This document shows, one piece after another, positions 60,658 to 64,000 of a stretch of 64,000 nt of DNA (position 1 is the first letter of the stretch; the number at the start of each line of letters is the position of its first letter). Below the pieces are notes generated by a model that was not told where the DNA came from, made no database searches, and worked only from the letters and a program-made list of their open reading frames with translations. This DNA is from a virus. The stretch is from the IMG/VR virus record IMGVR_UViG_3300046318_000188, positions 57,873-121,872 of that record; one strand, written 5' to 3'. The translations under genes were made by a program, and so were the position numbers.

Positions 60658-60665
60658 GATAAATA
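60658..60665 (+). promoter_or_regulatory. Late promoter variant GATAAATA
   Basis: Intergenic, 31 nt upstream of the Cys-rich gene. Confidence 0.65.
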
Positions 60666-60696
60666 TGCCATTATTAACATTAGATACTAGAAAATC

Positions 60697-61179
60697 ATGA
60701 CTTTACCATCAACTGGCGCCATAGCGACATCCGACATCAATATTGAAGTTGGTAATGCCTCAAATTATTCTTTAGCTCTATCTTGGATTAGAGATAATAC
60801 CAAACCTTCAGTAACCGATTTCAATAGTTTGCGTAGCAAAGCGTATTATCAAAAGAATAATGATGGTAACTGTGCCAATGGGAATTGTACATCCAATTGT
60901 AATTGTGGTAATATTCAATGTAATAATTGTGTTATTTCTGGTACTGTAAACTGCCTGAATTGTGATGCTCAAAAATGGTTACAAACCGACTGTAATTGTG
61001 GAACTCCATATAACTGTACTACAGGTGCAACATCTTATAACTGTAATTGTGACTGTCCTGTGGATTGTGCTTGTGCTTGTAACTGTCCAGTTGACTGCGC
61101 ATGTAATTGTCCTGTAGATTGTGCTTGTGACTGTCCTGTGGATTGTGCTTGTGATTGTAACTGTGATTGCGGTGGTTAA
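60697..61179 (+). CDS. Cys-rich repeat protein; candidate radical SAM substrate with a fibre-like N-terminus
   Basis: 160 aa with 29 Cys by manual count, all after residue 58; four CPVDCAC units; ends CDCGG. Confidence 0.8.
   Translation: MTLPSTGAIATSDINIEVGNASNYSLALSWIRDNTKPSVTDFNSLRSKAYYQKNNDGNCANGNCTSNCNCGNIQCNNCVISGTVNCLNCDAQKWLQTDCNCGTPYNCTTGATSYNCNCDCPVDCACACNCPVDCACNCPVDCACDCPVDCACDCNCDCGG
61042..61170 (+). repeat. Tandem coding repeat (about 24-nt unit, [D/N]CPVDCAC x4)
   Basis: Units such as GACTGTCCTGTGGATTGTGCTTGT, with synonymous divergence between copies. Confidence 0.85.
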
Positions 61180-61207
61180 TAATTTAAACTAATGGAAATA
61201 TAATAAT

Positions 61208-62674
61208 ATGATTTTTGAAATTCATGCAGAACGAAGTGCAACCGATAAAAAGATTTTCTTTTATGATAATGAAAAGAATGTATTAAAAGATTCTGACGGC
61301 AATACTTATCAATCAACAAACTCAAAAAAGTTTTCAAATAAGTTACCTGTAATTCCTTTCGATAAAGAAAATCCAATAAAGAAATCCAATAAAATCAAAC
61401 TGTTGAAGATTCAGATGGGATTGTCTTGTAATTATTCTTGTGACTACTGTTCACAAAAGTTTGTTGAACGAGCAGCCGAAACCAATCCAAAAGATGTACC
61501 CAACTTTATGGCCATGATGGAGAATTTAGACCTCTCTGAAGAAATGGGTTTGAAGATTGAATTTTGGGGTGGCGAACCATTTGTATATTGGAAAACCATG
61601 AAACCTCTGGCAGAAGCATTGCGTGCTAAGTTTGCTCATTGGAAAACACCACCAAAATTCTCTGTCATTACCAATGGATCGTTATTGACAGAGGACATCT
61701 GTGCATGGTTGTACGCCATGGGGTTTTCTGTTGCTATCTCACATGATGGACCTGGTCAATCGGTTCGTGGTCCTGATCCATTTGAAGATCCAAAGAAGAA
61801 AGAGGTTGCATTAGATTTATATAATGTATTGAAGCCGTTAAACCGTATGAGTTTTAATTCTATGCTGAATGCTAAAAACATTAGTAGAAAAGAAATCTAT
61901 GATTGGTTTGTTGACTTTACTGGTGATAACCGTGTAATTGTCGGTGAAGGTGGATTCGTTGATGCATATGATGAAGATGGTTTAGACAATTCATTAAGTA
62001 CCAAGAAATCTCATTTTAATTTCAGGCAGTTGGCTTTTAATGATATGAATGATATGATTAAAGAAGGCAACGGTTTCTTTGGTTTCGGTTCAATCAAACA
62101 GAAGAAAGATTCTTTTGTTCGTAATGTGTTGAATCACAACGAATCAAAGTTCTTGGGTCAAAAATGTGGCATGGATGACGAACACACATTGGCAGTTGAT
62201 TTGCGTGGTAATGTTACCACTTGTCAAAATGTCAGTTCATTAGAATTATCCAAGAATGGTGAAAGCCATTTGGGTGGTACAATGGACAAATTAGAAGAAG
62301 TACAATTAACATCTTCTACTCATTGGATGAATAGACCAGATTGTGCTGGATGTCCTGTATTACATATTTGCCAAGGCGCTTGTATGTTCCTCGATGGTAA
62401 ATATTGGGATGCATCTTGCAAAAATGCTTATTCGGACGCAATTGCTATATTTGCTATAGCATTTAAAGAGATAACCGATGGATATGTACCGTTTCTAATT
62501 AACAATGAAACTTTACCATTGGATAGACAAGACATTTGGGGTGTTCTATATGAGCATAAAGAAGAACCAAAAAGAAAAATTATACCAATCAAAGTTGTTA
62601 GTGATAAAATGACAATTGTTAATGATATTGAGGTATACGAACAAAGTAAAGTAATTGAAGGAGAAACTCAATGA
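61208..62674 (+). CDS. Radical SAM enzyme with a SPASM domain (anSME/peptide-maturase-like)
   Basis: CNYSCDYC (CxxxCxxC), FWGGEP, ITNG, ISHDG; SPASM QKCG...TCQ...CAGCPVLHICQGAC...SC. Confidence 0.92.
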   Translation: MIFEIHAERSATDKKIFFYDNEKNVLKDSDGNTYQSTNSKKFSNKLPVIPFDKENPIKKSNKIKLLKIQMGLSCNYSCDYCSQKFVERAAETNPKDVPNFMAMMENLDLSEEMGLKIEFWGGEPFVYWKTMKPLAEALRAKFAHWKTPPKFSVITNGSLLTEDICAWLYAMGFSVAISHDGPGQSVRGPDPFEDPKKKEVALDLYNVLKPLNRMSFNSMLNAKNISRKEIYDWFVDFTGDNRVIVGEGGFVDAYDEDGLDNSLSTKKSHFNFRQLAFNDMNDMIKEGNGFFGFGSIKQKKDSFVRNVLNHNESKFLGQKCGMDDEHTLAVDLRGNVTTCQNVSSLELSKNGESHLGGTMDKLEEVQLTSSTHWMNRPDCAGCPVLHICQGACMFLDGKYWDASCKNAYSDAIAIFAIAFKEITDGYVPFLINNETLPLDRQDIWGVLYEHKEEPKRKIIPIKVVSDKMTIVNDIEVYEQSKVIEGETQ

Positions 62675-63060
62675 TAGACCATCCAGACTTTTTTAACGAA
62701 AACCTACACCTATTGGCTAAAAAACTAAAAGCACTCGATAGTGTTGTTCTTGTTAAATTTCATGCGGTAGTAACACAAAAAGCAATTGAAATGTATGGAG
62801 CAGACACATTTAAGTTTTCTGTCGTTGTTGAAAAGCATGCACTTGATGACCGTTATGATTCACACAGGGAATTTTTTCAATTTGTACCAAAAGATTTGTG
62901 GAATAATCCAGATGTTGAAGTTCGTGAAAAAAATACTGAGTTACCATCTACGGGCCATACAACCGTTGTTAATAGATTTACAAATACAATAAAACTTTAT
63001 CTTGAAAATCCAACAACAGATTTAGATAGTTTGACAAATTGGTCATACCAACAACAATAA
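62671..63060 (+). CDS. Hypothetical protein coupled to the radical SAM gene
   Basis: ATGA overlap; RBS AAGGAG. Confidence 0.7.
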   Translation: MIDHPDFFNENLHLLAKKLKALDSVVLVKFHAVVTQKAIEMYGADTFKFSVVVEKHALDDRYDSHREFFQFVPKDLWNNPDVEVREKNTELPSTGHTTVVNRFTNTIKLYLENPTTDLDSLTNWSYQQQ

Positions 63061-63087
63061 TAAAATTTAATACAACGAGAATATATC

Positions 63088-63819
63088 ATGCTGACAAAAT
63101 TTGAAATAGATGCACAATATTATAAATTATCAAAACATCTAATCAATAAAAATGAAAGTCCAGTAAATACTGGAAATCAATCATTAAGTTATTTAATGGA
63201 TTCAAATGGCCGTTTAATTGCCATTGGAACACATAGAATGAGTTGTCAATCAATGGCAATCTTTAATAAGACTTACATTCCAACACTATTTAATTCAATC
63301 AATAATTCCAACCTTAATATTAATATACAGCGTGACGCTTGCTGGAAATTAAAGAAGTTTGGAAACCCACAACAATCAATATGGCAAGAAGATTTAAATA
63401 TAGAATCAATTGAAGATTTATATGAAATTGTGTTGGTAAATCAAAAGGTCGCTCTTCTGGATAAAATTTACGATAATATTAATGCTACAAGAAATAAGAC
63501 TTATGGTGGATTGGTGGGTCAAAATTTCATATATTTCTCTAAGTATCTAGAAGCAAAAGAAATTATGGAAAAGAATATTGAATCTGATCCTGATTTTAAA
63601 TATCCTTATACCACAGGTTATGCTACTCTGATGAATCTGTCTTTACAAGAATCAGCAAAAGCTATAATTTTACAATTTGATTCCGTATCGGGTGCTATGT
63701 CTGAGAGTGAAAATATTCGTTTGAAATATAAAAATTTAGTTATCAATGAAAAAGATATCGCCAATTTAAAACACATTTATAAAGATTTTTTAGATTTACA
63801 AAATTACGGATGTTTGTGA
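63088..63819 (+). CDS. Hypothetical protein; C-terminal half resembles tail-fibre-associated helical proteins
   Basis: Y..KY.EA...YP....YA.......A..I........E.IR.KYK pattern, recalled from fibre-adjacent phage proteins. Confidence 0.45.
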   Translation: MLTKFEIDAQYYKLSKHLINKNESPVNTGNQSLSYLMDSNGRLIAIGTHRMSCQSMAIFNKTYIPTLFNSINNSNLNINIQRDACWKLKKFGNPQQSIWQEDLNIESIEDLYEIVLVNQKVALLDKIYDNINATRNKTYGGLVGQNFIYFSKYLEAKEIMEKNIESDPDFKYPYTTGYATLMNLSLQESAKAIILQFDSVSGAMSESENIRLKYKNLVINEKDIANLKHIYKDFLDLQNYGCL

Positions 63820-63820
63820 C

Positions 63821-64000
63821 ATGAGTTTATTATTTTATAATAGTTATGATATTTTTCTCAATTCAAAGAATAAAGATAAAGTTAATCTAATACCAGGAGG
63901 AAAAGCATTTTCTTCCTATTTTGAAATATTTCATCTAAATTCAACTGTTGTAGACCGAACAAACACAATCACATTTCCTTTAAACACTAAGGTATTGGAC
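63821..64000 (+). CDS. Hypothetical protein, truncated by the window end
   Basis: ATG at 63821, frame open to 64000. Confidence 0.55.
   Translation, partial: MSLLFYNSYDIFLNSKNKDKVNLIPGGKAFSSYFEIFHLNSTVVDRTNTITFPLNTKVLD

Follow-up and report, generated by a model that had tools for sequence, protein, structure and literature searches.

A Cys-rich protein and a radical SAM/SPASM enzyme of a freshwater T4-like phage: a candidate cross-linked fiber tip

The Cys-rich protein, the radical SAM/SPASM enzyme and their putative promoter

The DNA described here (the window) makes up the final 64 kb of one viral contig of 121,872 bp with 36% G+C (IMG/VR record IMGVR_UViG_3300046318_000188), and window and contig end at the same position. 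Close to this end lies the gene for a 160-aa Cys-rich protein (60697..61179, + strand), a candidate substrate and fiber-tip adhesin, and the gene for a 488-aa radical S-adenosylmethionine (rSAM)/SPASM enzyme (61208..62674, + strand) starts 28 nt past its stop codon. The large open reading frames (ORFs) of the contig are all on the + strand, in the layout of a T4-like myovirus, and the DNA polymerase shares ~50% identity with its T4-like cyanophage counterparts. At least half of the sampled words are present in each of seven freshwater metagenome runs. The best explanation for the two genes is an operon that makes a late-expressed, modular adhesin or fiber-tip protein together with its maturing enzyme, giving a thioether-stapled tip. 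We assign this reading a probability of about 0.6.

The 160-aa protein contains 29 Cys residues (18%) and no His. There is no Cys in residues 1–58 and the first one is at position 59, exactly as the initial annotation had it for this ORF. The residue directly before Cys is Asn in 14 cases, Asp in nine, Ala in five and Gln in one (Asn/Asp for 23 of 29). The sequence has 15 C-x-C steps, four CPVDCAC units and eight C-x-x-D motifs. It is the only genuine ORF of the contig with such a composition, the other matches being antisense ORFs.

A word-indexed search finds a family of 133 homolog clusters with E values of 0.01 or below, all unnamed or ‘hypothetical’, one of them from a Paraburkholderia genome. 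The members follow a common plan, with an N-terminal domain (MTLPxSGxIS..., Glu17 being near-invariant), an Asn/Cys core and a variable C-terminal end. The core (residues 59–122; 60871..61062, + strand) is conserved in an alignment of 94 sequences. Residues C59, C78, C86, N88, C89, D90, N100, C101, C116, C118 and C120 are invariant, and N58, N61, N63, C64, C75, N77, N85, N106, C107, N115 and C122 are near-invariant. Most of the conserved core Cys residues are directly preceded by Asn (N58, N63, N77, N85, N88, N100, N106 and N115), and the NCD triplet at 88–90 is invariant. The tail that follows (residues 120–160; 61054..61176, + strand) consists of CPVDCAC/CxC repeats, with the four CPVDCAC units, and ends in GG. 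The program TRF reports a period of 24 with 4.4 copies at 61047..61158. The CPVDCAC cassette shows no indel across four freshwater runs. In run X4, a G>T change at window position 61169 replaces the last tail Cys, Cys158, by Phe.

The variable ends of the family include short CxC tails with a terminal W, CxC tails with a terminal GG (the type in the window), (NC)n runs, and a domain of ~170 aa that starts with SKIIC, has no Pfam family and has a hydrophobic end. Other members carry a Peptidase_S74 domain (PF13884; 32.1 bits in L081 against a gathering threshold, GA, of 22, and several more members in the word-indexed search) or a Hint-like start (L100, below the GA). Self-cleavage by S74 or Hint would make the Cys-rich module the mature C terminus of such proteins. 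The window protein has neither domain and ends in its free CxC...GG tail. One locus (L121:4778-5185 and a second ORF) holds two different Cys-rich members, of 135 and 139 aa, with one rSAM gene, and hence a single enzyme may serve several substrates.

A tblastn search with the 160-aa protein against GenBank phages, in which the low-complexity filter may hide matches, gives no match, and neither does a megablast search with the Cys-rich/rSAM region. A PDB profile search with the Cys-rich family returned a single cytochrome row, which was discarded as spurious.

The second gene was described initially as a complete rSAM/SPASM gene, and the sequence bears this out. The SPASM model TIGR04085 is matched with 32.2 bits (cutoff 27), PF04055 with 28.5 bits (just below the GA of 29.5), and phrog_1802 with an E value of 2.5e-63. 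An alignment of 40 homologs shows the CxxxCxxC cysteines C74, C78 and C81 to be invariant, together with the SPASM cysteines C320, C339, C379, C382, C388, C392 and C404. The spacing of the latter (CX13GX4C and CX2CX5CX3C) fits the seven-Cys motif for two auxiliary clusters, and the enzyme would carry these two in addition to one SAM cluster.

The AlphaFold 2 (AF2) model of the enzyme has a pLDDT (predicted local distance difference test) score of 87.8. The top Foldseek matches are anSME (1.2e-11), CteB (1.7e-11) and TigE (2.5e-10). With the program VIA, the closest structure is CteB (5why_B), with a Z score of 24.6 and an rmsd of 4.0 for 352 aligned residues, followed by ChlB (Z score 20.9), anSME (20.3) and TigE (19.7).

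A late-promoter-like motif, GATAAATA (60658..60665, + strand), is located 39 nt 5′ of the ATG of the Cys-rich ORF. The consensus of T4 late promoters is TATAAATA. In the whole contig, NATAAATA is found in 21 forward copies as compared to 4 reverse copies, a strong strand bias, and 18 of the 21 forward copies are intergenic, 14–89 nt before a start codon. The genes behind them include those for a 570-aa (sheath-sized) protein, a 180-aa (tube-sized) protein, fiber/spike proteins of 1090 and 1754 aa, and a 257-aa protein. Copies are located at window coordinates 60658, 22192 and 7687, among others. From its distribution, NATAAATA looks like the late-promoter core of this phage, with any base at position 1. 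As GATAAATA at 60658 fits this contig-wide pattern, late expression of the Cys-rich gene, and with it of the Cys-rich/rSAM operon, is plausible, in agreement with the initial proposal of a late-promoter variant.

Linkage between enzyme and tail motif, and the N-terminal domain

The two genes are closely coupled in related viruses. All 80 viral loci that were retrieved with the Cys-rich protein contain an rSAM homolog (47–85% identity), usually adjacent and on either side. Among the 47 viral loci retrieved with the enzyme, tblastn finds the Cys-rich protein in 38, and reading of the ORFs adds divergent Cys-rich members in seven (L021, L027, L028, L030–L033). After removal of redundancy, both genes are present in 77 of 79 viral loci, counts that are not independent because the loci come from related phages; L005 and L036 start inside the rSAM gene at a contig edge. 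Co-occurrence had been suggested as a test at the outset, and the pair is indeed conserved, homologs of the enzyme without a Cys-rich neighbor being few and mostly at contig edges. The order of the genes varies between loci.

More distant homologs of the enzyme (42–46% identity) are present in the cultured Ralstonia phage RSP15 (Ackermannviridae) and Achromobacter phages JWF and 2-1 in GenBank. In RSP15 and JWF they are located 0.7–1.7 kb downstream of (N/D)C-bearing fiber genes, from which one or two genes separate them. The ‘side tail fiber’ of RSP15 has NCQCGN at its C terminus. JWF gp028, annotated as T4 gp36-like with Hint, has NCNCDCNCNCSC directly before its Hint domain.

In bacterial genomes, a strict [ND]C-rich ORF is found within 3.5 kb of the enzyme gene in 40 of 80 homolog loci, as compared to none of 2365 more distant ORFs. 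The motif [ND]C-x-C-x-C is found on the same strand within 4 kb in 61 of the 80 loci, as compared to 2 of 2555 distant ORFs. The motif starts 6–15 residues from the C terminus in 54 of these 61 loci, and the three that lie furthest from it (169–199 residues) precede a further domain, which is Hint in L161 and L171. A PHROG scan of ten motif carriers identified a collagen-like tail fiber in L135 (5e-89), tail fibers in L163 (2.6e-19) and L139 (8e-10), and weaker tail-fiber matches in L164 and L170, the other five having none. The bacterial and cultured-phage contexts together indicate that the enzyme tracks the tail motif, and that the tail motif sits on the ends of fibers.

A minimal version of the tail, with four Cys residues, is seen in Rhodobacteraceae (L175, L176, L178, L179, L184, L186, L187, L195 and L196). 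Proteins of 85–220 aa that end in NCNCNCRC (NCTCNCRC in L176) are encoded there 0.7–1.1 kb upstream of rSAM homologs with 33–37% identity.

The coupling bears directly on the possibility that the tip binds metal ions, as a metallothionein-like module or a multi-metal rod, with functional free thiolates and an rSAM enzyme that acts on few residues or elsewhere. The His-iron needle of T4 gp37 offers a comparison. The Cys content, the C-x-C steps and the lack of His would suit such a tip, and AF2 cannot fold the Cys-rich region as a metal-free monomer. The 160-aa protein has no Pfam, NCBIfam or PHROG family, and no family assignment contradicts a metal site. However, a metal site would call for no dedicated rSAM/SPASM gene, whereas the coupling is near-universal. 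In addition, no metallothionein family was matched in Pfam or NCBIfam, and the residues before Cys are conserved as Asn/Asp, which are of the acceptor type in known ranthionine systems (PMC13692751). A metal-binding tip is considered unlikely here, and a cross-linked tip is preferred.

The N-terminal domain of the Cys-rich protein (residues 1–55, free of Cys; 60697..60861, + strand) is a candidate virion anchor. AF2 predicts a fold for it, with pLDDT scores of 84–92 over residues 1–50. Among 1.84 billion representatives, a profile search with this domain finds 574 proteins with E values of 0.001 or below. Among the best 150 of these 574 matches, 76 are Cys-rich, 27 are fragments of less than 100 aa and two are repeat artefacts, while 45 have at least 100 aa and other C termini, with less than 2% Cys in 38 of them. 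P0121 and P0248, top rows of the profile search, consist of many weak repeat matches of ~5 bits each and were dropped as artefacts. The heads on ten sampled proteins of the 45 are Gly_rich_2 (twice), Fibrinogen_C, Laminin_G_3 and F5/8 type C (once each), and five have no confident Pfam match. In PHROG, N-domain proteins with other heads match tail fiber or host specificity families, and the hits for the N-domain alone are phrog_26817 and phrog_26746. A word search for the domain in longer proteins had given no match, which is weak evidence, and the profile search later found relatives.

The gene position of these relatives is informative. In 79 viral loci (928 kb) that were found with P0217, an N-domain protein without the Cys tail, there is no rSAM homolog and no ORF with an rSAM/SPASM motif. 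Fourteen of these loci, chosen for their full flanks on both sides, were inspected, and a large upstream ORF, picked by size, was scanned in nine of them. It matches a PHROG tail family in eight of the nine and ‘long tail fiber protein distal subunit’ in five, with a small ORF between the long-tail-fiber gene and the N-domain gene. The gp38 adhesins of T2-type phages are encoded at a comparable position, behind the distal long-tail-fiber gene.

From these comparisons, the N-domain looks like an anchor or adaptor for exchangeable heads, and not like the leader of a peptide made on the ribosome and modified after translation (RiPP), because it is shared with lectin-like and Gly-rich proteins that have no rSAM neighbor and are encoded behind long-tail-fiber genes. 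The initial suggestion of a fiber or adhesin anchor is thus strengthened. The domain would serve as the docking site on the virion, with the end of a tail fiber as the most likely place, and in other phages the same domain bears lectin-like heads, at the gene position of gp38 in T2-type phages.

There are further similarities to gp38 of T2/S16-type phages, which is likewise small and combines an attachment module at its N terminus with a variable C-terminal module that faces the receptor, and some of the N-domain relatives have glycine-rich domains. In contrast to gp38, the relatives have the small intervening ORF, and the gene in the window does not follow a fiber gene. Membership in the gp38 family finds no support from Pfam (no GP38 match at E values of 0.1 or below), from the PDB (no fold match) or from BFVD, where the ‘Gp38 domain’ rows have E values of 0.9 and 2.8 and are not significant. 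The only significant BFVD match of the Cys-protein model is a member of the family itself. A homotrimer prediction with three copies of the 160-aa protein gave a score of 0.00, which weighs neither way.

These results also need to be compared with a classical RiPP pathway, in which the 58-aa leader would be cut off and a cross-linked peptide freed at lysis as a toxin, signal or anti-competitor. The bipartite layout, with a Cys-free N terminus and a Cys-rich C terminus directly beside an rSAM/SPASM gene, is what such a pathway would have. Moreover, the N-terminal sheet of the enzyme aligns with the start of CteB, where CteB has its RiPP recognition element (RRE), the VIA alignments to both CteB and TigE starting at model residue 1. 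This part of the enzyme model has strands at residues 2–8, 14–20 and 25–28 and no helix before residue 82. A canonical RRE, which is a leader-binding winged helix with three strands and three helices, is thus not seen in the model. On the other hand, the N-domain has a confident fold that is common to lectin-headed proteins without an rSAM neighbor, the same tail motif caps long PHROG tail fibers with unrelated N termini, and self-cleaving S74 or Hint modules terminate some members. The promoter looks late, and neither the operon nor L003, the closest relative, shows a protease or exporter gene. A released peptide is the least probable of the alternatives considered here, and the tip is expected to remain part of the virion.

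Putative chemistry of the tail

The target of the enzyme would be the C-terminal two thirds of the protein, first the conserved Asn-Cys core and then the CPVDCAC/CxC tail. The presence of the motif on unrelated carrier proteins argues for recognition of the tail itself, and the enzyme may read its (Asn/Asp)-Cys-x-Cys sequence with no need for a detachable leader. It would install several sulfur-to-carbon thioether bridges of the ranthionine type, from Cys to the side chains of neighboring Asp/Asn residues. By analogy with known systems, thioether links are most likely the chemistry on the tail, because the donors and acceptors are conserved residues, the closest fold is that of the SCIFF thioether synthase CteB, and the C-x-x-D motif is as in CrpA. 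The predicted product is a rigid, redox-insensitive and protease-resistant tip. A possible rationale is that the cytoplasm, where virion proteins fold, is reducing and precludes disulfides, while thioethers would serve as permanent staples.

Cross-linking of a Cys-rich protein by an rSAM/SPASM enzyme is known, and the proposal would carry this kind of modification over to a new biological setting. The closest parallel is CrpC/CrpA of Methanococcus voltae, described in 2026, where an rSAM/SPASM enzyme with three [4Fe-4S] clusters installs ranthionine links on a Cys-rich protein (PMC13692751). In both systems, the enzyme gene lies beside that of a whole Cys-rich protein, whose N-terminal part is free of Cys and whose C terminus is repetitive and rich in Cys, and the AlphaFold model of the Cys-rich region has low confidence. 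The same paper regards C-x-x-Q/D as suggestive of rSAM thioether formation; CrpA has C-x-x-Q/D and the phage tail C-x-x-D. It also reports Cys-Asp thioether links and Asn/Asp as acceptors in ranthionine systems. There are differences as well. The phage enzyme reaches only 38.6 bits against the cutoff of 525 for the CrpC family TIGR04463, and its N terminus is ~57 aa with three modeled strands and no helices, in comparison to a predicted RRE of 92 aa in CrpC. CrpA has a 17-residue unit, whereas the grammar of the phage repeat is (N/D)C-x-C and its context is a phage late/fiber operon. The text of PMC13692751 contains no mention of phage or viral.

A second and older parallel is QhpD, which forms Cys-Asp and Cys-Glu thioethers in QhpC, the small structural subunit of quinohemoprotein amine dehydrogenase (PMC7876137, PMC13692751). 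As with QhpC, the modified phage protein would stay in a larger assembly and not be released as a natural product. In contrast to the phage system, QhpC has few Cys residues and a leader engaged by the RRE, and the phage has no tryptophylquinone partner or flavoprotein. The score of the phage enzyme for the QhpD model is 63.2 against a cutoff of 453 (TIGR03906).

A third comparison is with the ranthipeptide/SCIFF maturases PapB/PapA, CteB/CteA and NxxcB/NxxcA. CteB is the best fold match, and PapB is the second among the best NCBIfam rows for the enzyme, which are all Cys-peptide maturases (geopeptide, PapB, QhpD, nif11 and CcpM). Systems of the PapB/CteB type have Cys donors and Asp, Asn or Thr acceptors, and NxxcB makes a Cys-Asn link. 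In contrast, their substrates are short secreted peptides with leaders, and their equivalog cutoffs are missed by the phage enzyme. Finally, the family resembles fibers and spikes that terminate in S74 or Hint, some members having one of these modules directly after the Cys-rich part.

The search of 61208..62674 against maturase models that had been proposed in the initial annotation succeeded in part, with the SPASM domain scoring above its cutoff and every named maturase equivalog below. Judging from these scores, the enzyme represents a SPASM maturase family of its own, because each named equivalog is far below its cutoff.

A different radical chemistry on the tail is therefore to be considered, such as anSME-type formylglycine formation, sactionine (S to Cα) links, epimerization or C-C bonds. 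The rank of anSME among the top folds, the cyclopropyl synthase TigE as the top PDB sequence match and the missed cutoffs of all equivalogs are consistent with it. Sulfatases are modified at a C-x-P/A-x-R motif, but this motif is absent from the tail. The model for anaerobic sulfatase maturases, TIGR03942, gives 39.9 bits as compared to its cutoff of 349.45, and CteB is ~4 Z units above anSME. Moreover, the target is Cys beside Asn/Asp, which fits the known Cys-Asp links (PMC13692751) and Cys-Asn links. Such other chemistry appears improbable, somewhat more so than a metal-binding tip, and thioether formation remains the preferred reading.

Several observations weigh against a thioether-stapled fiber tip. 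In this genome, the Cys-rich gene is preceded by small early-type genes and not by a fiber gene. The equivalog scores are low throughout, at 71.8 for geopeptide TIGR04280 (cutoff 400), 66.4 for PapB NF047865 (340) and 44.2 for TIGR03974 (425), together with those for TIGR04463 and TIGR03906 given above. The closest PDB relative by sequence is TigE, a cyclopropylglycine synthase that makes no thioethers (PMC10878394). In view of the chemistry of TigE and the missed cutoffs, homology alone does not fix the chemistry of the enzyme. The fold of anSME, which converts Cys to formylglycine, is nearly as close as that of CteB. The Cys-rich part is not folded with confidence by AF2, its pLDDT being mostly below 50. 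Foldseek against the PDB finds no relative of the Cys-protein model and a wide VIA search none with a Z score of 2 or above, so that neither search yields a solved relative, gp38 included. Besides the relatedness of the viral loci, 19 of the 80 bacterial loci have no tail motif. Eleven of these have short flanks, and the other eight have full 8-kb upstream flanks (L151, L182, L183, L199, L200, L201, L205 and L207, 31–46% identity), four of them from Variovorax/Burkholderiales with 31–34% identity.

The receptor-binding tips of phages set the host range, and their stabilization has so far been credited to trimer folding, chaperones and metal ions. If the proposal is correct, rSAM cross-linking of tips would be a new layer of virion maturation, and RiPP-type chemistry, a matter of small secreted peptides, would then reach structural proteins of viruses as well. 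The Cys-rich modules could also serve as compact, redox-proof scaffolds. The hypothesis is directly testable in the laboratory, given the large family (133 clusters and 61 bacterial loci) and the cultured phages JWF and RSP15. No paper on an rSAM-partnered, Cys-rich phage fiber protein was found in the literature search, subscription papers and supplements being outside its range. A cyanophage ‘radical SAM maturase’ is listed merely as an antibiotic gene in the available part of PMC12801897, and PMC7379824 and PMC6339383, as far as their available text goes, are unrelated to a Cys-rich phage fiber protein.

Accessory and neighboring genes

Three ORFs are tightly packed 3′ of the rSAM gene, and no convincing terminator is found within the run of Cys-rich, rSAM and accessory genes. 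The first ORF (62671..63060, + strand) overlaps the stop of the rSAM gene by 4 nt and encodes a 129-aa protein without an assigned function. It has no family match and no homolog with an E value below 1e-5 in 79 related loci, and the Atlas offers nothing usable for it. A 113-aa ORF with a similar start is present at its position in L003.

The second ORF (63088..63819, + strand) encodes a conserved accessory protein of 243 aa, also without an assigned function. It has 27 homolog clusters, all unnamed, and no relative in Pfam, NCBIfam, PHROG or the PDB. It had been compared at first to fiber-associated chaperones. This assignment was dropped, as the protein has no family or PDB relative and is not similar to JWF gp029; a low-confidence Atlas model shows a weak neighborhood only, with TM scores of 0.51–0.61 to a viral ‘tail protein’ cluster. 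Homologs are found in seven viral loci, and a PP-loop (SGGxDS) protein of ~372 aa follows immediately in every case.

The third ORF (63821..64000, + strand) is the first 60 codons of such a PP-loop (SGGxDS) ATP-pyrophosphatase-like gene and is open at the end of the contig. Its product is 65% identical over 57 aa to the N terminus of a 381-aa protein (L036:2057-3202), and the full-length relatives have weak matches to LarE (E value 4e-4) and Asn synthase (~1e-2). Metagenome contigs of runs X3 and X5 continue for 142 and 122 nt past position 64000, whereas the likely source contig stops exactly at it. The truncation inside the PP-loop gene therefore stems from the assembly and not from the phage, and the contig is no closed circle. 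Reading the contig as a circle was also tried, in which case the ORF would stop at 63 aa, and the remainder of the 381-aa homolog is absent from the contig. The start of the contig is not treated as adjacent, because of this absence and the contigs that run past the end. In the closest relative, L003 (enzyme 84% identical), the 113-aa ORF comes first, then the 243-aa homolog and two PP-loop proteins, of 372 and 290 aa, an order that probably shows the genes beyond the end of our contig.

The accessory genes differ between subtypes of the Cys-rich protein. Among the eight loci with a GG-ended protein, the 243-aa protein is present in seven and the PP-loop gene in six, plus the fragment in the window. 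The 58 loci of the SKIIC type have neither, and 53 of them have an Asp/Asn β-hydroxylase-like gene (PF05118). This gene is located a few kb downstream (for example L011:9312-10091 and L011:7483-8385), and never occurs with the GG-ended type. Lineage may account for the split as much as function does. Tied to the GG-ended subtype, the PP-loop enzyme or enzymes and the 243-aa protein would probably add a further step at carboxylates.

A broader and more tentative proposal, which we regard as possible without favoring it, is that many phages staple their host-facing fiber tips with leader-independent rSAM/SPASM enzymes. The stapled tail may be carried by a free-standing protein at the gp38 gene position, by long fibers, or by proteins in which it precedes self-cleaving S74 or Hint modules. 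It would be a poly-thioether rod that takes the place of disulfides in the cytoplasm. In the GG-ended subtype, the PP-loop enzymes may activate a carboxylate, possibly that of the terminal Gly, either for its amidation or for covalent ligation of the tip. Stapling of this kind would be the first rSAM post-translational modification of a virion receptor-binding structure.

On the upstream side, the region 59374–59952 has a weak Pyr_excise (DenV-like) match (E value 3e-4, below the GA), and the region 60019–60375 matches phrog_385, ‘transcriptional regulator’ (1e-7). Both neighbors are syntenic with the Cys-rich/rSAM pair in ~30 related loci.

Elsewhere in the genome, the 1754-aa tail-spike-like protein behind one of the NATAAATA copies (L290 (G000:C1) 6545-11809; phrog_4636, 1.3e-14) has 74 Cys residues, unusually many for a virion protein. 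It does not have the [ND]C-x-C tail, and it adjoins the collagen-like 1090-aa tail fiber and two glycosyltransferase-like genes.

Four types of neighbor from the related loci were looked for in this contig, and the Asp/Asn hydroxylase, the Trp-halogenase-like protein, the B12-rSAM protein and the EF-hand protein are all absent from it. In the sublineage of L028, the rSAM gene is followed by genes for a tryptophan-halogenase-like flavoprotein (PF04820, 3e-30) and a 331-aa protein (L028:8484-9686 and L028:7481-8476). The Cys-rich protein of this sublineage ends in (NC)6 and is encoded directly behind an S74-terminated fiber. In 15 related loci, a B12-binding rSAM gene (PF02310 and PF04055) is located ~5.8 kb downstream of the SPASM enzyme (for example L019:11793-13313).

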